The position numbers and the translations under genes are program-made. From IMG/VR virus record IMGVR_UViG_3300024289_000017: a stretch of DNA of 20,000 bases; one strand, 5' to 3'. This document shows, in pieces, positions 4,341 through 19,187 of the stretch; the first letter of the stretch is position 1, and each line of letters opens with the position of its first letter. The stretch comes from an uncultured virus (IMG/VR IMGVR_UViG_3300024289_000017) (Duplodnaviria > Heunggongvirae > Uroviricota > Caudoviricetes). Below the pieces are notes generated by a model. The model worked only from the letters and a program-made list of their open reading frames with translations, did not search any database and had not been told where the DNA came from.

Positions 4341-5235
4341 AAGTCCATTGCTTAGGAAGAGCAAAGTTTTGATGAGAAAACTCATCACGATTTACAATCT
4401 TGTAACTTCCAAACTCATTGTGCATGACATAACCTTCATGATCACTGATTCCACCATCAATTTCACATCGAATGTCAGTGTCACATTCAATGTAAAAGAA
4501 CATGTCCATTTTGATAGACTCAATCAACTTCCACAAACGAAGCAGGTTGATGTCAACATCATAATTTTCTGCAATTTCATGCTCATCCACCTCACTACCC
4601 TCGCGGATGTAGGAATTGATGACTTTTTTGAGTTCTTTTGCTTGTTTATCATTCACAAAGGTGCAAAGAGTGCTCATTTGTTTAGCAAACTTGCAGAAGT
4701 CTTCGATGTCTTCGCGATAAGGACAAATAGATGCTTCTGGTTGCACCCATTTCACATCCAGAGTATCAGCAAACTGTTTGCTGATAGGATATGCAACAGC
4801 ATTGCGAAGATCATCTTCACAATCATACTCAGTGTGAGGGGCAATGATTACACTTTGCTCAATCACCTCAGGGAACTTGTAAGTGATCGTGTTGGGGCAA
4901 TAAGTATCACTCCCAGCAAAACCAATAAAATCACCTTGATAGATATGACTTGTGCGAGGTAGACTATCAAAGCAAGCATGAAGAATAGTCGCAACTTTAC
5001 CTTCATGGTTTTGATCAATTTCTTCATGAGAATGATTGATTTTAATTTTTACTTTGTTGAACACAGATTTGGTGCCAACAAAAAACTTACCGTTAGCAGG
5101 ATTGCGACCCCACACAATAGCAGGAGCGCCATCAATCTTGACACTGACATGAGAATCGGCAGTGAACCAATCAAGAACTGAAAGATCACCAGTCAAGATG
5201 GTATCTTCAGGATGTTCGATGTGCTTGTTTTGCAT
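4339..5235 (-). CDS. conserved phage protein with ligase/nucleotidyltransferase-like motifs (DUF6267-like)
   Basis: 298 aa from MQNKHIEHPED; KIDG, YQGDF, EGYV and YKIVN motifs in order; start placed downstream of promoter element 5. Confidence 0.8.
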   Translation of the reverse strand: MQNKHIEHPEDTILTGDLSVLDWFTADSHVSVKIDGAPAIVWGRNPANGKFFVGTKSVFNKVKIKINHSHEEIDQNHEGKVATILHACFDSLPRTSHIYQGDFIGFAGSDTYCPNTITYKFPEVIEQSVIIAPHTEYDCEDDLRNAVAYPISKQFADTLDVKWVQPEASICPYREDIEDFCKFAKQMSTLCTFVNDKQAKELKKVINSYIREGSEVDEHEIAENYDVDINLLRLWKLIESIKMDMFFYIECDTDIRCEIDGGISDHEGYVMHNEFGSYKIVNRDEFSHQNFALPKQWT

Positions 5236-5256
5236 TGGTGTTTGAGTCACAGGTTG

Positions 5257-5314
5257 ATCATAAAACAAAAACAGGAACCTTGTGGGTTCCTGCGTGACAG
5301 TTGTTTAATTGTCC
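5257..5314 (-). promoter_or_regulatory. double-palindrome early-type promoter element, copy 5
   Basis: TATGAT (5257-5262), inner CAGGAACC-N5-GGTTCCTG, CGTGACAGTT-gttt-AATTGTCC. Confidence 0.75.
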
Positions 5315-5511
5315 TCTTTCATCTTATCTTGAGCAGATTTGCTGATTTTGCACACCAAATCATTATCGTAAAAGTATTTTACCCTTTCACGGCGAGCAGC
5401 AATCAACATGTTGTACTCTTCTTGTTGCTGTTTCGTAAAAATAAAATCTTGACGACGCCAAGCATCTTTCAGTTCTTGAAGATGTGGCAGAACATTTACA
5501 GTATCAGTCAT
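5305..5511 (-). CDS. hypothetical protein (MTDTVNVLPH...)
   Basis: ORF track; TGATTATG junction. Confidence 0.8.
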   Translation of the reverse strand: MTDTVNVLPHLQELKDAWRRQDFIFTKQQQEEYNMLIAARRERVKYFYDNDLVCKISKSAQDKMKEDN

Positions 5512-5513
5512 AA

Positions 5514-5654
5514 TCAATAATCGTAGTTGGAGTTTAGAAAAGAATTGAAAGACTTTTCCTCATCTTCGACTTCATCAAAGAGTCCATCATAAGATGCTTC
5601 TGCAAAGTCGAAACCATCAGATTCTTCAATTTGGAAATCATCAAAGGTGTTCAT
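5514..5654 (-). CDS. very acidic small protein, 46 aa (MNTFDDFQIEESDGFDF...)
   Basis: manual translation; AGGAG ribosome-binding site upstream; first gene after element 6. Confidence 0.75.
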   Translation of the reverse strand: MNTFDDFQIEESDGFDFAEASYDGLFDEVEDEEKSFNSFLNSNYDY

Positions 5655-5680
5655 GAAGTGCTCCTTGACTGAACAAATGT

Positions 5681-5739
5681 AATTTAACTGATCTTGGTGT
5701 GGAAATCAAGTGTCTTGTGACAGTTTGAGAACTGTCTCA
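5681..5739 (-). promoter_or_regulatory. double-palindrome early-type promoter element, copy 6
   Basis: TAAATT (5681-5686), inner CTTGGT-N6-ATCAAG, TGTGACAGTT-tgag-AACTGTCTCA. Confidence 0.7.
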
Positions 5740-6315
5740 AAGTTTCTTATAAAGTATGATTTTCTTGTTTTCTCCAGTAGGTTTAACAAACTTTTGCTTT
5801 AATTGTTCTCCACTATCCCATTTCATTGAAGATGATTTGTGGGCAGGAAGTCCTGCGGTTTCACCTATAACTTCCCAATTATCTGCTTTATAAACTGCAC
5901 CAGTGTTTCCACCTGCAACAAATGTGAGCAAATGCGATAGATCATCACCATATTTTTCTTTCCATACTTCTTGGCAAGAATTGCGAACAAGTTTCAAAAT
6001 CTGTGTGCCTGCATTGGGTATCTTTCTCTTTAGGCAAAATCTCCAATTATTTGCGAAGTTGTTAAAAACCTTTCGATATTCATCTTTACTGAGATTTACC
6101 TTTTTCAACAAATCTTTCGGTGGTGGATATACTGAAGAACCAAGTCCAATCATGCCAATACACTCAGGAAGTAAACCCTCCTGAGTATAATAAATCAACC
6201 AATCAATCCGTCTACCTACAGATGCTGCAGATGCGACATAACTGTGATAGTTCTCGATGATATTTTTTACTTCTTGCTTTTGTGCTTTTGTTGTAACTAA
6301 CTCAATAGAAAACAT
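5737..6315 (-). CDS. DruA/DUF4338-like (Mom-related, GNAT-like) protein
   Basis: 192 aa; YHSY, GRRIDWL, GMIGLGS, NNWRF, WKEKYG, LLTFV and GAVYKADNW..IGETAG match the DruA/Mom pattern as I recall it. Confidence 0.7.
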   Translation of the reverse strand: MFSIELVTTKAQKQEVKNIIENYHSYVASAASVGRRIDWLIYYTQEGLLPECIGMIGLGSSVYPPPKDLLKKVNLSKDEYRKVFNNFANNWRFCLKRKIPNAGTQILKLVRNSCQEVWKEKYGDDLSHLLTFVAGGNTGAVYKADNWEVIGETAGLPAHKSSSMKWDSGEQLKQKFVKPTGENKKIILYKKL

Positions 6316-6983
6316 TAGAAAGTTTTGTAAATATGAAACATCAATCCATGATAACCAGAGGTATATTTTTTACCCGAACCTTTCATTTGAAGATGAAACA
6401 TTTTATTGCCATTTGAGTCAATAAAATGTAGTGTGGTCTCATTCAATACCCATTGTCCATTATACACCAGTTGCTCAAGATCTTCAACAGAGTACACTTG
6501 AGTATTAGTAGTAGGTTTATCAAACCAAATCAAATAATCAACTGGAGTGTCGCTCATGCCGCGGCGGACAATCACATCGAAGATTTCAAGTTTGTGTTGA
6601 TTGAACCATTCAATCGCCCAATCATTGTATCCATCATCAATTTGACTTTTAGTGAGTCGATGTTGACGACTTTGACCTTTGCTTACATCTTTTCCAGGAA
6701 TACCAAAGAAAGAATCAAACCACAGACGGAGATCTCCAGCAATGTTAAAAAACTCACACCACCTTTCAGTAGAAGTTAGGTGACATTGAGTGTGATTCTT
6801 ACTGACAGATTTGAGACTGTAAGAAACACCAGTTTCGTTGTTAATGATGTCTTGCTTTGTCTTGGGTTTTCCATCAACAACATGACCAGCAGTTTTAGTA
6901 TTCAACCAATCACAAATGCGCTGTTCATTAAGATGACCGATGCGCTTTGCTTCGGTTCCTGCAATGATTTGGGCAGTAGTCAT
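6315..6983 (-). CDS. putative type II restriction-endonuclease-like protein (HinP1I/MspI-like PD-(D/E)XK)
   Basis: 222 aa; AKRIGHLNE, KQDI, SLK, Q..ERW and LQMKG..LMF layout resembles HinP1I-family enzymes. Confidence 0.6.
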   Translation of the reverse strand: MTTAQIIAGTEAKRIGHLNEQRICDWLNTKTAGHVVDGKPKTKQDIINNETGVSYSLKSVSKNHTQCHLTSTERWCEFFNIAGDLRLWFDSFFGIPGKDVSKGQSRQHRLTKSQIDDGYNDWAIEWFNQHKLEIFDVIVRRGMSDTPVDYLIWFDKPTTNTQVYSVEDLEQLVYNGQWVLNETTLHFIDSNGNKMFHLQMKGSGKKYTSGYHGLMFHIYKTF

Positions 6984-7008
6984 GAATTAGATGTCAAAAG
7001 TGAATAAT

Positions 7009-7434
7009 TTAGCGACTCATAATTGCTTTGAGTCTTGCCTTCTTTGCTGCAAGTTCAGATTGTGCTCTGCTTTGCATTTCTCCATGAGATTGTCTAATCT
7101 GTTTCCCCTTCCAAGTAGCAGATTGTCTAGCAACTTGTTGGTTATACAAATTAGGTTCCATTGTTGGACTTTGCTCAGTCTGCAACTCTTCCTTTACCTT
7201 CTTCGCTGCTTTTTCTCTACGCTTGAGTTCTCTCTTTACAGCACCACCGCCACTACGATTAACAATGAGTTTTTCTATTTCTTTTTTCTTTGGTTTACCT
7301 GCTGGACCTGAATGTGACTGGAGAGTGTAACTTTTTACTCCATCAACTTCTTTATAAGTTCCAGGAACTGCGTGTGGTGGAGTATTTGGTTTTTTACCTT
7401 CACAAATTTCGTAGAACTCTTTGAATGTCAACAT
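7009..7434 (-). CDS. basic late protein, putative internal head protein
   Basis: N-terminus MLTFKEFYEICE resembles the T4 capsid-targeting sequence; K-rich; late promoter upstream. Confidence 0.75.
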   Translation of the reverse strand: MLTFKEFYEICEGKKPNTPPHAVPGTYKEVDGVKSYTLQSHSGPAGKPKKKEIEKLIVNRSGGGAVKRELKRREKAAKKVKEELQTEQSPTMEPNLYNQQVARQSATWKGKQIRQSHGEMQSRAQSELAAKKARLKAIMSR

Positions 7435-7454
7435 TTGTCTATTGTTTTTTTGAT

Positions 7455-7461
7455 TATTTAT
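7455..7461 (-). promoter_or_regulatory. T4-type late promoter
   Basis: ATAAATA on minus, 20 nt upstream of the ATG at 7434. Confidence 0.7.
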
Positions 7462-7463
7462 TT

Positions 7464-7733
7464 TTACTCAAACTCAAGAGTCCTATTTGCTTTTTGAAGT
7501 GGGTTCGGAGTTTGATATTCAAATTGTGAGGGAGTTTCAACAAATACTTCGATTTTAGTTTCATCGTTCCAATGTCGAATCACACCAGCACAAATAAAAG
7601 CATTAGTAATCAAATAAGTTGCAAATATAAAAGTGCGAATAATTGCAACCTTATCAGATTCTTTATCACATTTGCTTGCCTTTTCACCCAATGCTTTTGC
7701 CCACCAGCGCCATGCAGTCTTGTTCTTCTTCAT
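7464..7733 (-). CDS. small membrane protein (MKKNKTAWRWWAKALG...)
   Basis: ORF track; one hydrophobic helix. Confidence 0.75.
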   Translation of the reverse strand: MKKNKTAWRWWAKALGEKASKCDKESDKVAIIRTFIFATYLITNAFICAGVIRHWNDETKIEVFVETPSQFEYQTPNPLQKANRTLEFE

Positions 7734-7959
7734 GTTTTGATTGTCTTGATTTAACATACTTCAACTGTTTCCAATCTTCTTTGTAACAAACCACAAGCAA
7801 TCTTTCGTTTGCATGAATAGGGCAAGCATGATAGTTTACTTTATCTTTAGGACGAACAATGTACTCGATAGTAATGTATTCGTCATCCTTAAAATAAACC
7901 CAACCTTCAACACCCTTTGTCCATTCTACATAATCATTGACTTGTGGTTTGTATTTCAT
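7684..7959 (-). CDS. hypothetical protein
   Basis: 91 aa ORF; ATGA overlap upstream. Confidence 0.75.
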   Translation of the reverse strand: MKYKPQVNDYVEWTKGVEGWVYFKDDEYITIEYIVRPKDKVNYHACPIHANERLLVVCYKEDWKQLKYVKSRQSKHEEEQDCMALVGKSIG

Positions 7960-8237
7960 ACAAAGAACGCATCTAGTGGAGATTGTTTAATGGGCATTGC
8001 GGTGTAGTTTCGCGTGTCCGTGATATTTACACGAGCACCGATGGTTTTACTATTGATGGGGGCGAAGTATTCTCTGGTCTTGGACTTGTAGAATCCCCAG
8101 ATGGTTTTTGTTGCAGCACCATTATTGTAATCAAACTTGCGATGGCAATGCAACCATATAGCAATAACTCCGCGCTTAAACTCTTCGAACTCATAAGAAT
8201 ACCCCTTTGGTGGATGATGAGGAAACTCAGCAATCAT
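7956..8237 (-). CDS. hypothetical protein (MIAEFPHHPPKGY...)
   Basis: ORF track; start moved to ATG 8237 because 8227-8394 is a separate gene. Confidence 0.8.
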   Translation of the reverse strand: MIAEFPHHPPKGYSYEFEEFKRGVIAIWLHCHRKFDYNNGAATKTIWGFYKSKTREYFAPINSKTIGARVNITDTRNYTAMPIKQSPLDAFFV

Positions 8238-9963: not shown

Positions 9964-10800
9964 TCAGTACAATAAACTCTCTAGTGCATTTGGATTAGAT
10001 TCCACCTTCACTTCTGGATGTTTGATGATAATAAGTTCCGTTTTCTTTCCTCTGCAACTTACATCACCTGCCATCTGATAATCAAACTCCAAATAGCGAA
10101 ACTCTGTCCAATCTTTATAAAGTTCTTTAAGGTAATCTGTGTTGTCATAAGACATCACGAACCCACCTTTATGTTGCTTCAAGACATCAGAAAGTTTATC
10201 GTGATTGAATCCTTCGTGAGTGCTTCCATCAATACCATAATAGTATGATGTAGTTTTATAATAAGGAGGATCCAAATACATAAAATCATTCTGATGCTTT
10301 GGTATTGTATCAAAACAATTTCCAAAAGAAAATGAGAAGTTTGGATTATAGAACCCAATGAGTTTATGAATACCAGAAAGATTTAGATTCTTTCTGGATG
10401 ATTCTGATGTGTGACCAAGATCTCCACTAAAGGCACCTTTGATGCAAATGTAAAATGACCATGCTCGGGTGAACTTATCATCACTCTCTAAAAGAGGAAG
10501 AAAAGACTTATAGTGTTCTCTATCTTTTAGAGGATAATGCTTTGCTGCTTCTTCTCCAATTCTCTTTCCACCTTCTGTGGTTAGAATCTCCCAAAAATCA
10601 GCAAGAGGTTGAAATAAATCATATGCTTGAACTTTTACACCTCTTGCTGCAAGGGCAAGTTCAATACAACCTCCACCCATGAAAGGTGACATCATATATG
10701 TAAGATTAGGATGAATCTCATCAATAATCTTAATGATCTCATCTTTCATAGTGTTTTTACCACCAGCGTAGCGGTATAAACTTGTGGAGGTATATCTCAT
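9964..10800 (-). CDS. DNA adenine methyltransferase, D12/Dam family
   Basis: RYAGGK, SPFMGGG (motif I), YLDPPY (motif IV), MSY. Confidence 0.9.
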   Translation of the reverse strand: MRYTSTSLYRYAGGKNTMKDEIIKIIDEIHPNLTYMMSPFMGGGCIELALAARGVKVQAYDLFQPLADFWEILTTEGGKRIGEEAAKHYPLKDREHYKSFLPLLESDDKFTRAWSFYICIKGAFSGDLGHTSESSRKNLNLSGIHKLIGFYNPNFSFSFGNCFDTIPKHQNDFMYLDPPYYKTTSYYYGIDGSTHEGFNHDKLSDVLKQHKGGFVMSYDNTDYLKELYKDWTEFRYLEFDYQMAGDVSCRGKKTELIIIKHPEVKVESNPNALESLLY

Positions 10801-13865: not shown

Positions 13866-13923
13866 ATCATACCAGGAATCTGGTGCTGTGGCAAGTCAGT
13901 GTGCCAGTTAATCAATTAGCACA
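13866..13923 (-). promoter_or_regulatory. double-palindrome early-type promoter element, copy 8
   Basis: TATGAT (13866-13871), inner ACCAG-N4-CTGGT, TGTGCCAGTT-aatc-AATTAGCACA. Confidence 0.7.
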
Positions 13924-15587
13924 TATGGTGCAGTTGCGACCTTTGCAAGTTTTGTTTTATTATTTTTTGTTTTGAACTCTTTAACAAAAGCATCTTCAAT
14001 AAGCATACTTTTGTTTCCAGAAAGAAATACCTTAGCACCTTTCTTTGCAAACAATCCATAAAGAGACAGCGTAATTTGTTTTTTCAGAAAATTTTGTATA
14101 TCTCTATCATTTCTAGTATAAATCCACAATCCTTGAGCATGGACATAATCATTATGCAAAATACCCATTTTATTTTTTAACATTGAATTTTTATCAAGAG
14201 TTGCAAGTTTTCCATGAGGACTTGTCAATGATTTGTTTTTACACAACTTAGATACTGCTATTCTATATTCTTGAAAGGAATCTTTTGGATTACTGGTTAA
14301 AGTATCATATTCTGCACAAAAACCTTTTATAATTTTATTTGAAGCATCATCATATAATACTAATTCTCTCTTACGAATTTCTCTCAAAGCACTATTATAA
14401 TCATTTCTTATCTTTTGAGGAATGTTTCTTTTGTTGATCGCAAAATCAAATGCTTTATTTCTAATTGAAATAATTTCTACAATCATAGAATTATATTTTG
14501 AATATTTTTTCATTATTACATCAGATACCGTATATGAAGCACCACCAACAAATGCACCTTTACCGAAAGGTTTTGCATTAAAACCCGTTCGTCCAATTTG
14601 CAAATCAAATTTTGCCAACTTATCTGTAATGTCAACTTTTTTGTAGTTTAAAGTGTAAATTACACTGAAATAAGTTCTACCATCCGCAATTTTGTCATCA
14701 TCAATATCTTCTATTTCCACCATTTCACTGATTAAGTCATATAGTTCCTTTCTATTCATTGACGATGCTCTTGCAAGAAATTCAGTATATGGGTCCAAAT
14801 ATATTTCAAATCCCTGAGCACCAGAAACTGTACCAACTATTGAAATATCTGCTTTTGATGCACTTGTTTTCTTCAAAGAAATGCCAACCATATCCTTTGA
14901 AGCAAAATACTTGTTTGTTAAAGTTCTAAAAGTATTTCTACCTCTATTTCCCCAAGCAAGATTATTCAAGATATCCATTGTTGTGACACTTGAATCAGTA
15001 ATGTTATCTTTAAATTCTTTTAGAATATCATTTACTTTACTTTTTTTTACTGCGATTACATCAACAGATGATAAAATATCAGAACCAACACTATCTGGCA
15101 AATCTAAAGAATTTAAAGTTTTTGTCAGAGCATCATCTTTCACAATTTGCATAAAATCTGTGCTCTGATCAAAAAACATGTATTGAGATAAATTTCCAAT
15201 AATGTTAGATTGTTTTAATTTTGCTGCACTAAGGTATGCCGACTTAATTTCACCATCTAATTTTGTAGGTTCTCCAGTTTCAGATCTTAACAAGGTTCCG
15301 TTTGGAAAATCTTTTTTGTGTTGACCAATTGGATATTTGCCATCTTTGTTAAGTGCATCTTCTTTTTTTAAAATTCCTGTTTTAGAATCTTTATGAAATT
15401 CTTGTATTCTTCTAAAATTAAAGGAATTTGGTAAATGATTGGAAAGTTTTCTTACTTCAGTATCATTATTATTGAAATAATAATCATAAACGATATTGCT
15501 AAACTCCTGCAAATCAGTATTTCCATCTGCAAAGTAACTAAATGCAAGACAAGTTAGTGCTTCTCTTGGTGTAGTTTGTGACGCCAT
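13908..15587 (-). CDS. large AT-rich hypothetical protein, possible divergent PD-(D/E)XK nuclease
   Basis: 559 aa; N-terminal E-helix, VDVIAV and GISLKK; late-like promoter upstream. Confidence 0.8.
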   Translation of the reverse strand: MASQTTPREALTCLAFSYFADGNTDLQEFSNIVYDYYFNNNDTEVRKLSNHLPNSFNFRRIQEFHKDSKTGILKKEDALNKDGKYPIGQHKKDFPNGTLLRSETGEPTKLDGEIKSAYLSAAKLKQSNIIGNLSQYMFFDQSTDFMQIVKDDALTKTLNSLDLPDSVGSDILSSVDVIAVKKSKVNDILKEFKDNITDSSVTTMDILNNLAWGNRGRNTFRTLTNKYFASKDMVGISLKKTSASKADISIVGTVSGAQGFEIYLDPYTEFLARASSMNRKELYDLISEMVEIEDIDDDKIADGRTYFSVIYTLNYKKVDITDKLAKFDLQIGRTGFNAKPFGKGAFVGGASYTVSDVIMKKYSKYNSMIVEIISIRNKAFDFAINKRNIPQKIRNDYNSALREIRKRELVLYDDASNKIIKGFCAEYDTLTSNPKDSFQEYRIAVSKLCKNKSLTSPHGKLATLDKNSMLKNKMGILHNDYVHAQGLWIYTRNDRDIQNFLKKQITLSLYGLFAKKGAKVFLSGNKSMLIEDAFVKEFKTKNNKTKLAKVATAPYVLID

Positions 15588-16124: not shown

Positions 16125-16290
16125 TTAATCGATCCTCACATTTAGTATAAAAAGTTCCGTTGACATAACAGGACTTCCCTGGTTCATAGTATTTTATCGT
16201 AGGTGGGTTAGGTTGGTCAATGGTACATATATTTCCAGTTGACATTAACAATCCATTTAAACAATACATTACCAACTGCGGAAGTAACAT
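16111..16290 (-). CDS. small Cys-containing protein, 59 aa (MLLPQLVMYC...)
   Basis: manual translation; TAATG overlap. Confidence 0.65.
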   Translation of the reverse strand: MLLPQLVMYCLNGLLMSTGNICTIDQPNPPTIKYYEPGKSCYVNGTFYTKCEDRLNGTK

Positions 16291-16865
16291 TACCCCACAC
16301 TCACTTTACGCAATTCAAAACTACCATCACCACGATCAATCCATTCAATTTGGTCACCCTCTTTCAGGTTTGCTGCTTCTAACAAGTCATCAGGGAAACT
16401 GATAAAGTATTCTGTTTTATCGGTATCAGCATCTTTACATTCTTCAACAGGAAGTTGCCACTTTACAACTTTATCTCTCACTGGATAAATGTCTCCATCT
16501 TCAGTTATATGAAGTTTAGATTCTTCTGACCAATTATTAACATCTTCCCAAAAATCATTCCAAGATTTCATACATTCTGGTGAAGGGTCATCTTTATCAC
16601 AAGAAAGAATTTTGTCTGGATCATATGATCCTTCATAGTATTCTTTTTCACTCATCACCTCTTTATATGTCCAACCACCATTACCATTTAACAGTGCAAG
16701 GAGTTCATAAGCCTCAGATGTTTTTTGTTTATATGTGTAGTAGTTTTCTTTAACTACACCGACAATAACATCATAAATCTCCTGTGGTGTTGCTTCACCT
16801 GCAGACATTGCATCATAAAGCCAATTTTCTAGATTTTCAAGTGAATACTTTTTGTAATCAGTCAT
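16290..16865 (-). CDS. protein with a C-terminal AbrB/MazE-like DNA-binding domain
   Basis: YFISFPDDLLEAANLKEGDQIEWIDRGDGSFELRK; start at MTDYKK. Confidence 0.75.
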   Translation of the reverse strand: MTDYKKYSLENLENWLYDAMSAGEATPQEIYDVIVGVVKENYYTYKQKTSEAYELLALLNGNGGWTYKEVMSEKEYYEGSYDPDKILSCDKDDPSPECMKSWNDFWEDVNNWSEESKLHITEDGDIYPVRDKVVKWQLPVEECKDADTDKTEYFISFPDDLLEAANLKEGDQIEWIDRGDGSFELRKVSVG

Positions 16866-17064
16866 TTCTTGGTTTGGGTTTAGAGCAATCGTGGCAATAG
16901 TAAGAGAAACCATCGCGGAAGTATTTTACCACCTGATAGTGGTCTTTGTCAAGTGGTTTTTCCACACCACATTTATCACAGATCCTTGTCTTTCTTGAGG
17001 GACTTTCGGATTCGCTTGAGTTCTTTGAGTTCCATTTTAATATTTTTGTAAGCAGCATCAGCAT
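16858..17064 (-). CDS. possible small zinc-ribbon protein, start uncertain
   Basis: CDKC...CHDC; overlaps the upstream gene by 89 nt. Confidence 0.45.
   Translation of the reverse strand: MLMLLTKILKWNSKNSSESESPSRKTRICDKCGVEKPLDKDHYQVVKYFRDGFSYYCHDCSKPKPRND
16923..16952 (-). promoter_or_regulatory. sigma70-like promoter upstream of the AbrB-domain gene
   Basis: TTGACA (16947-16952), 18 nt ending TGG, TAAAAT (16923-16928). Confidence 0.55.
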
Positions 17065-18158: not shown

Positions 18159-19187
18159 TCATAGAGTAATCCAGCGTTTGTTAATAAGAGTCCATTTTGT
18201 TACTTCTGCGATGCGTTCCCGTACAGATTTTGCGGGCACCCATCCCAGTTTTTTCATTTTATCACCATCCAGAGCATAACGCAAATCGTGCCCTGGACGG
18301 GAAGAATGGAAGTCTAGCAATTCATACTTCAGTTCTTTACCCTGTGCTTCTGCAATAATCTGAGCGAGTTCAAGATTATTCAGTTCTTCAGAACCAACAA
18401 TGTTAAATTTGGAGCACTTTGCACCACCCCAAGTTGGTTCAAATGTTCCTTGATAATTCAGAAGGAACAGAATGGCATCAGCAACATCTTCAGCGTGAAT
18501 ATAATGACGGGAACCAGGAATGGTACAGGTCTTGTCACTATGAATCGTCACAGTCTCACCATCACGAATGCGTTTGATACACATTGGAATGTACTTCTCA
18601 GGATGTTGACGCTCCCCAAACACATTCATCGTATGAGTAATGTAAATCGGAAGACCATAGGTGTTCTCATAGGCAACTGCAAGTTCTTCACCACCTGCTT
18701 TGGTTGCACTGTAAGGATTAGTGGAGTTGTACCGATCATTCTCCTTGTACTTGATACCATTCGGTGCAGGACCAAATACTTCATCCGTGCTGAAATACAC
18801 AAAGCGTTCCAGATTATCTTTTTGAAGACGCGCAAACTCCAGAATGTTGCAGGTTGCCACAACATTATCCAGAACAAACTCCATTGGATATTCAATACTG
18901 CGATCAACATGAGATCCAGCGGCAAGATGTAGAATATAATCCACATTTCCAACTTCACTACGGACCAAAGGATTAAGCTCTGCCTTGAGATCGTGATGAA
19001 CTACTTTGACACGTTTGCGAACTTCAGGATCAAATGAAAGCATCAAATCGTGCAGACGATTCAAGTTTCCACTATAATCAAGACGATCAAGTGTTACAAT
19101 GTCCCAATCAGTTGTTTTTAAAATTTGTCCAATCAAATGATGGGCAATAAATCCAGCACCGCCAGTAATTAAAACTTTTTTATTCAC
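18159..19187 (-). CDS. rfbB: dTDP-glucose 4,6-dehydratase-like NAD-dependent epimerase/dehydratase
   Basis: TGGAGFIA, HLAAGSHVDRSI, STDEVFG, YSATK, RPGHDLRY. Confidence 0.9.
   Translation of the reverse strand: MNKKVLITGGAGFIAHHLIGQILKTTDWDIVTLDRLDYSGNLNRLHDLMLSFDPEVRKRVKVVHHDLKAELNPLVRSEVGNVDYILHLAAGSHVDRSIEYPMEFVLDNVVATCNILEFARLQKDNLERFVYFSTDEVFGPAPNGIKYKENDRYNSTNPYSATKAGGEELAVAYENTYGLPIYITHTMNVFGERQHPEKYIPMCIKRIRDGETVTIHSDKTCTIPGSRHYIHAEDVADAILFLLNYQGTFEPTWGGAKCSKFNIVGSEELNNLELAQIIAEAQGKELKYELLDFHSSRPGHDLRYALDGDKMKKLGWVPAKSVRERIAEVTKWTLINKRWITL

Follow-up and report, generated by a model that had tools for sequence, protein, structure and literature searches.

Some viruses carry nucleases that attack unmodified DNA and leave their own DNA exempt: the restriction-modification (R-M) systems of chlorella viruses degrade host DNA, and endonucleases II and IV of phage T4 work with hydroxymethylcytosine. 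The restriction endonucleases R.HinP1I (G^CGC), R.MspI (C^CGG) and R.HhaI (GCG^C) are monomeric PD-(D/E)XK enzymes of type IIP, which recognize 4-bp sites with a central CG (available part of the HhaI paper). Solitary restriction endonucleases, with no methylase beside them, have been surveyed in prokaryotes (Ershova et al. 2012, PMC3488263). Here we describe two adjacent genes, open reading frame (ORF) A and ORF B, from the uncultured virus IMG/VR IMGVR_UViG_3300024289_000017 (Caudoviricetes), in a stretch of 20,000 nucleotides referred to below as the window (Table 1). ORF A is predicted to encode a type II restriction endonuclease. ORF B, directly downstream, probably encodes a nucleic-acid modifying transferase with a GNAT fold.

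As in the chlorella virus and T4 systems, a viral nuclease would hit unmodified DNA and the virus's own DNA would be exempt. Here, however, the exemption seems to lie mainly in the site being missing from the genome, and the gene next door encodes a GNAT in place of a methylase or a base replacement at the nucleotide level. ORF A shares the whole-chain fold of HinP1I, MspI and HhaI, but has no detectable sequence similarity to them (Pfam E ≤ 1, PDB E ≤ 10), is phage-borne and has no adjacent methylase in the window. Its likely site is ACGT, unlike the GCGC of HinP1I and the CCGG of MspI. The solitary enzymes of PMC3488263, as far as its available text goes, come from cellular genomes, whereas here the solitary state goes with total site loss in phage genomes; the words “avoid”, “absent”, “under-represent” and “no sites” do not occur in that text. 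In the literature searched (most subscription journals lay outside its scope), no report was found of this kind of nuclease paired with a GNAT, or of phages that carry a solitary restriction enzyme and lack its site.

We propose, with a probability of roughly 45%, that ORF A is a weapon directed at DNA with ACGT sites, be it the chromosome of the host or that of phages infecting the same cell. The phage that carries it would be spared mainly because selection has stripped its genome of almost all ACGT. ORF B would modify DNA for a separate purpose (anti-restriction) and give at most leaky second-line cover to the few remaining ACGT sites. A sequence-only reading of the locus had instead inferred a two-gene module in which a GNAT replaces the methylase as protector, or alternatively a homing-type nuclease.

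Fold and candidate active site of ORF A

Sequence searches with ORF A gave little. Its PHROG match was phrog_25220, of unannotated function. Pfam returned only HTH_65 (E 0.12) and no nuclease family at E ≤ 1, NCBIfam only chance matches to ABC-ATPases, and PDB searches at E ≤ 10, with either the sequence or a profile of its alignment, only chance matches and no nuclease. PADLOC had no match for ORF A or ORF B.

A structural model was built from an alignment of 31 sequences, with a mean predicted local distance difference test score (pLDDT) of 91.7. With this model, Foldseek gave four matches at E ≤ 0.001, which were HinP1I twice (2.7e-10 and 9e-9), HhaI and MspI. The match spanned the whole HinP1I chain, with a shared two-sheet fold. 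The model is confident and predicts that ORF A is a monomeric-type type II restriction endonuclease of the HinP1I/MspI fold, upholding the family call of the sequence-only reading.

Nine residues were invariant across all clades of the nuclease family (see below): T42, K43, D45, S56, K58, T65, Q66, Q199 and H217. E20, in the N-terminal helix, was invariant in clades III and IV. The stretch D45-X10-S56-x-K58 follows the pattern of a PD-(D/E)XK site in which another residue takes the place of the acidic one, and HinP1I and MspI carry Q and N at this position. As judged from the alignment, the candidate catalytic residues are D45, S56 and K58 (TKxD-X10-SxK), plus E20. H68 was at first a candidate for reading the outer base. 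It was rejected, since clade IV has A or G at this position and lacks ACGT just as fully.

The nuclease family and its neighbours

Relatives of ORF A (174) and ORF B (1137) were found in a large protein collection. The nuclease relatives adjoin three kinds of DNA methyltransferase, or B, or stand alone, and the family behaves like the R half of R-M systems. Its tree had four clades plus one archaeal relative. In clade I, which includes the genes of S-CAM22 and S-RIM12, a PF01555-type methylase was adjacent in 17 of 21 loci; two loci were solitary and two were cut off. One further member of this clade (L047) had B directly after the nuclease. Of 33 clade II loci, collected in a scan that used a nuclease of this clade as its seed, 28 had the nuclease flanked by B and gp59, four had it followed by a ~420-aa protein and one had it solitary. 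Two of the ~420-aa proteins were compared; they were 68% identical, both had an SPPY motif and one had a sub-threshold PF01555 match. The lone solitary clade II gene lies in ACGT-free DNA. Clade III, to which ORF A belongs, comprised nine A-then-B members, nine followed by a PF01555 methylase and two solitary ones. All 35 distinct members of clade IV were solitary.

The archaeal relative, from a metagenome-assembled genome (L184:1622-3765), had a PF00145 5-methylcytosine methylase upstream of the nuclease, with a 4-base overlap and ordinary cellular genes around. It was the sole cellular relative found among 185,579 species genomes. ACGT occurred once in this 6.7-kb locus, against 15 expected.

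An A-profile scan covered 71 loci. B lay directly downstream of the nuclease in 14 and a PF01555 methylase in nine; one had such a methylase two genes upstream, and 47 had no modifier near. A single genomic slot was seen in three states, namely A-methylase-helicase (L118), A-B-helicase (L104) and A-helicase (L107, L125). B thus takes the methylase slot of sister phages in clade III (L104 vs L118), and the same holds in clade I (L047 vs S-CAM22). B joined the nuclease family in three separate clades and in three arrangements, and the linkage of the pair is conserved; B and a methylase were never both adjacent to the nuclease. The adjacent cognate methyltransferase that is the hallmark of type II R-M systems is present in relatives and lacking in the window, as the sequence-only reading had noted: the nearest methylase gene there, of the D12 class, lies ~3 kb upstream of the pair on the same strand.

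Several kinds of nuclease gather around the A and B genes. An HNH/NUMOD3 homing-type endonuclease lies directly upstream of a clade II nuclease (L214:1894-2937), and in another locus a gene for an S1/P1 nuclease overlaps B by one base (L028:3117-3884).

Loss of ACGT from phage genomes

Palindromic four-letter words were counted against a Markov expectation, and ACGT stood out. Next to solitary nucleases (50 stretches, 490 kb) ACGT was seen 0 times against 681 expected. It was absent from all 50, including a 180-kb genome rated 93% complete (0 vs 267), and the solitary state arises at four separate places on the nuclease tree. Where a methylase accompanied the nuclease, ACGT was seen 104 times against 191 expected in clade III (106 kb) and 66 against 178 in clade I (98 kb). 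The A-then-B data together had 14 against 262 (242 kb). The window itself had one ACGT, whereas 200 shuffles had a mean of 35.9 (standard deviation 5.6) and every shuffle at least one. The count was 2/76 in the 77-kb record of the window (G000), where ACGT was the most depleted of all 136 four-letter words, and 8/145 in a 126-kb record (G012), which represents the same phage (99.997% identity to the window's record over 74 kb). An A-then-B phage with a 59%-identical nuclease (G011) had 3/65 in 72 kb.

The solitary (0/681), methylase (104/191) and A-then-B (14/262) counts, taken together, indicate that ORF A most likely cuts ACGT. On the plainest reading, a phage can carry this nuclease only if it methylates ACGT or is free of it. 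Other methylases do not explain the pattern. PF01555 had no match in the 77-kb record, and neither PF01555 nor PF00145 had one in the 126-kb record. The window's phage and the zero-ACGT solitary genome each carry a D12 methylase, and neither has PF01555 or PF00145; the D12 class therefore leaves the purge in place.

The 14 surviving ACGT sites of the A-then-B phages showed no flank consensus that would mark a target context of B. Some were clustered, with four in ~3 kb of G012 (26899-30054) and three in ~3 kb of G011 (30232-32979). These clusters may be recently acquired DNA that is not yet purged.

Other words were depleted as well. CGACG was considered as the site of the clade II nuclease (1/27.5) and rejected as a lineage trait, since nuclease-free relatives were similarly poor in it (3/23.6). 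A complete 177-kb genome with B and without A (G007, reached via L043; loci L174-L182) had no ATCGAT, TCATGA, TGATCA, TGCGCA or TTCGAA, and GATC at 0.29 of expectation; another solitary nuclease or host restriction could account for these losses. The non-palindromic word AGCC/GGCT was strongly depleted in the window's record (34/110) and in clade IV loci (46/489), with GGCC and CCGG low too. The AGCC/GGCT depletion was not linked to the nuclease in the comparisons made.

The genome statistics also bear on the suggestion that ORF A is chiefly a selfish mobile nuclease cassette of the homing type, with B as its landing site or a hitch-hiker. The clade II nuclease (A') is present or absent between phages with identical B proteins, and its insertion point falls exactly at the border of B and gp59, where ~25 bp of the 3' end of B are repeated. 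This polymorphism suggests that a selfish element describes at least the spread of that gene, and in this one clade the homing alternative of the sequence-only reading has some support. As a general account we find it very unlikely. Over its full length the protein matches genuine restriction enzymes, and relatives form part of classical methylase-nuclease pairs, one of them cellular. The A'-bearing and A'-free alleles of gp59 share an ACGT site, so no change in immunity was seen near the insertion. A genome-wide purge of a 4-bp word would not be expected for a long-site homing enzyme either, and in clade III A and B sit together at a genomic place other than the usual one of B.

ORF B, a GNAT of the DruA family

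ORF B matched PF14236 (DruA) with a borderline score, just above the threshold of the family (27.6 bits against a gathering score of 27, E 2e-6, residues 4-127) and the PHROG “Mom-like DNA modification protein” at E 5.8e-4. It has a GNAT fold. The nearest solved structure was Mom of phage Mu, with a margin of only ~1.6 Z units over ordinary GNATs. NCBIfam gave nothing useful, a PDB sequence search gave only chance matches, and PF25680 (the Mom family) was not among its Pfam matches at E ≤ 1. ORF B is thus a probable nucleic-acid modifying transferase with a GNAT fold, of the DruA family, and the earlier description of it as DruA/Mom-like holds in this sense.

Mom is a GNAT that uses Gly-tRNA to place a carbamoylmethyl group on the adenine N6 of double-stranded DNA, with R111, S124 and R151 as essential residues, and it blocks restriction through this modification (PMC13219725, available sections). 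ORF B has the same fold type. Mom and B are nevertheless distinct and may work side by side, because true Mom genes adjoin B in four loci. These Mom genes (L072:3561-4316, L058:2261-3004, also in L073 and L075; PF25680, E 6e-48 to 6e-49) overlap B by 4 bases, and some phages thus carry both GNATs as a pair.

DruA of type I Druantia shares PF14236 with ORF B, and the listed cluster representatives of the B relatives carry the same precomputed family. In contrast to DruA, ORF B, at ~190 aa, matches only positions 52-174 of the 297 in the profile. In type I Druantia, DruA shares an operon with DruB-DruE (large helicase), whereas there was no large Druantia-like gene near B; its neighbours were small phage genes, B itself had no PADLOC match, and it is phage-borne, outside any host defence system. 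DUF4338 has been termed a GNAT domain (PMC10853773), and DruA-like coding sequences were noted from structure in six Synechococcus phages (Phold preprint). The available parts of both sources give no function for these genes. A longer DruA-like paralog (249 aa; PF14236 79.5 bits, E 3e-22) was found directly upstream of B in one locus (L062:1977-2726).

The genomic surroundings of B were surveyed in the best 80 of 185 B-bearing viral contigs. An A-family gene touched B in 21 of them and one ended at the contig edge. The remaining 58 had no A-family gene within the flanks, so B clearly has a function independent of the nuclease in such phages. When free of A it sits in the replication module, beside and between gp33-like (33 loci) and gp59-like (28 loci) genes. 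Other A-free sites were after the DNA polymerase (nine loci) and beside primase, DnaB-like helicase, clamp-loader or gp46/47-like genes. ORF B, the B of the complete genome and the clade II nuclease had no tblastn match among 50,697 phage isolate records, which leaves metagenomes as the only source of the B family here.

Does ORF B protect against ORF A?

The fullest partnership would be a true two-gene module similar to an R-M system. B would then hypermodify DNA (e.g., adenine, as Mom does) as the dedicated protector that replaces the methylase, and the purge would be a relic or imposed by the host. Several findings favour a protective role. B and methylases swap exclusively and repeatedly beside the nuclease, B taking the exact methylase position in both clade III and clade I. 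Clade II is heavily tied to the neighbourhood of B: 28 of 33 genes abut it, four of the other five abut the ~420-aa protein, and the solitary one is ACGT-free. The clade II phages next to B keep a normal ACGT level (69/278 in 193 kb), with an observed-to-expected ratio (O/E) of 0.25. The few surviving ACGT sites are seen only where B or a methylase is present; the A-then-B phages tolerate 14 and the solitary ones none (p 1.6e-8). Mom, the nearest structure to B, itself blocks restriction through adenine modification (PMC13219725, available sections).

The genome of the window's phage speaks otherwise. Its 126-kb record is nearly free of ACGT, and across the A-then-B lineages, with their 59%-identical nucleases, O/E is 0.054, tenfold below the methylase lineages. 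ACGT kept at 5% of expectation in spite of this divergence looks like the work of continuing selection, and a working cognate protector would not leave such a trace; the purge looks actively maintained. B is also mostly found without any A-family gene (59 of the 80 loci, one of them contig-cut). In a low-confidence alignment, R111 and S124 of Mom have no match in B, and the surviving ACGT sites lack a flank consensus. We therefore regard the dedicated module as unlikely, and B would give partial protection at best in the window's lineage. Of the proposal made from the sequence, the seat of the methylase stands and the full replacement of its function does not follow for this phage. A more specific version, in which B is a DNA-hypermodifying GNAT that depends on aminoacyl-tRNA or another acyl donor and forms the self-protection half of an R-M pair with an ACGT-cutting HinP1I-type nuclease, is also on the unlikely side, if less so.

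At the other extreme, B could be unrelated to A. Avoidance alone would protect the phage, and the two genes would be neighbours because accessory “DNA warfare” genes pile up in plastic regions. Avoidance alone does suffice in 50 of 50 solitary stretches, and the window lineage is nearly ACGT-free despite having B. Five solitary-nuclease records lack B and five B-only records lack A. Overlapping stop and start codons are common between unrelated neighbours in these genomes. The TAATG junction of the window, confirmed from the sequence, recurs in near-identical loci, and diverged A-then-B loci have overlaps of 4 and 10 bases. Since adjacent genes in related loci usually overlap by 1, 4 or 10 bases, the one-base overlap carries little weight alone. 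A mere gathering of unrelated genes is nonetheless unlikely. B adjoins the nuclease in three clades, with three arrangements in all, and the nuclease has B or a methylase at its side but never the two together. In the clade II-seeded scan B borders 28 of the 33 nuclease copies, and non-zero ACGT counts occur only where B or a methylase is present.

Our proposal, in which the purge is the first layer and B a second one that is leaky or unrelated, thus ranks before a full R-M-like pairing, which in turn ranks before the absence of any tie between A and B. Several points weigh against it. The site ACGT comes from genome statistics as its sole basis. The clades come from a quick maximum-likelihood tree of 62 distinct nuclease-family members, with support from the Shimodaira-Hasegawa-like approximate likelihood ratio test (SH-aLRT) only. 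In conditional binomial tests the ACGT level of the A-then-B phages was above the solitary one (p 1.6e-8) and below that of clade III with a methylase (p 3e-25), and these p-values overstate independence, the loci being related metagenomic fragments. ACGT is already reduced in related nuclease-free phages (O/E 0.25-0.37), e.g., to 153/412 in the complete 177-kb genome with B and without A, and related phages purge other palindromes entirely (CGCG 0/97 in that genome, and several 6-mers). Both observations imply that host restriction shapes these genomes too. In the clade II phages (gp33-B-A'-gp59) ACGT stands at background level and no methylase was found in the partial records examined; this fits B as a full protector there, or another specificity of the nuclease. 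Lastly, the alignment of B with Mom had an hhalign probability of 21% and paired R111 with N89, S124 with P100/N101 and Y159 with Y142, all at low confidence. With this weak alignment and no match to PF25680 at E ≤ 1, B is placed outside the Mom family.

The source phage and the surroundings of the pair

The window is the end part of the 77-kb viral record, and its minus strand carries all convincing ORFs. The neighbouring genes match families typical of T4-like cyanophages, e.g., DUF6267 and DUF7717, and the helicase shares no more than 59% identity with its counterparts in Synechococcus and Prochlorococcus myoviruses. The source phage is therefore an uncultured, diverged relative of the T4-like cyanophages, viruses of marine cyanobacteria. 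Megablast of window positions 5000-8000 gave no match with phage isolates.

The two ORFs lie where the sequence-only reading had placed them (Table 1). On the plus strand, positions 6313-6317 read CATTA, and base 6315 is common to the TAA stop of ORF A and the ATG of ORF B. That reading had also set the pair between a late gene and a promoter element. This was not borne out: a simple promoter and terminator scan of positions 5200-7800 found sites no more frequently than in shuffles, and the 82-nt spacer 3' of ORF B folded no better than shuffles (z -0.85). Elsewhere in the window, the 559-aa ORF looks like a recent import.

Table 1 Features of the 20,000-nucleotide window (feature, position, strand, description).
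ORF A	6315..6983	-	222 aa, ATG start; predicted type II restriction endonuclease of the HinP1I/MspI fold, inferred site ACGT
ORF B	5737..6315	-	192 aa, ATG start; GNAT-fold DruA (PF14236/DUF4338) family, probable nucleic-acid modifying transferase
TAATG stop/start overlap joining ORF A and ORF B	6313..6317	-	read from sequence
D12-class (Dam-type) N6-adenine methyltransferase	9964..10800	-	nearest methylase, non-adjacent; PF02086 E 1.9e-18, phrog_56
559-aa ORF	13908..15587	-	no PHROG or Pfam match; lowest-G + C stretch (~0.30 vs 0.38 elsewhere)
207-aa ORF	16290..16913	-	C-terminal MazE/AbrB-like antitoxin-type DNA-binding domain, 24.1 bits vs Pfam cut-off 24.7
Sole ACGT of the window	19011..19014		inside epimerase/dehydratase gene 18159-19187

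Implications for phage biology

The mechanism proposed from the sequence is partly supported, and the pair is best read as a virus-borne type II nuclease, with immunity mainly by site deletion, beside a Mom-fold GNAT of the DruA family in the seat of the methylase. This gives the unannotated phage protein family phrog_25220 a proposed role and a testable specificity, ACGT. It would mean that viruses use restriction enzymes without a methylase and become immune by deleting the target word from genomes of up to 180 kb. The specificities of other orphan nucleases in viral metagenomes could then be read computationally from words that a genome avoids completely. A single locus that holds a methylase, a GNAT or neither is a clean natural experiment, and with a DruA-family GNAT of the Mom fold recurring in the methylase position, the function of DruA becomes testable with two small genes. 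If B is a protector after all, the pair would be the first R-M system whose “M” is not a methyltransferase, and the DruA component of Druantia would be assigned a role in marking DNA. The clade II phages, which keep ACGT without a methylase in the partial records examined, would be the clearest case.

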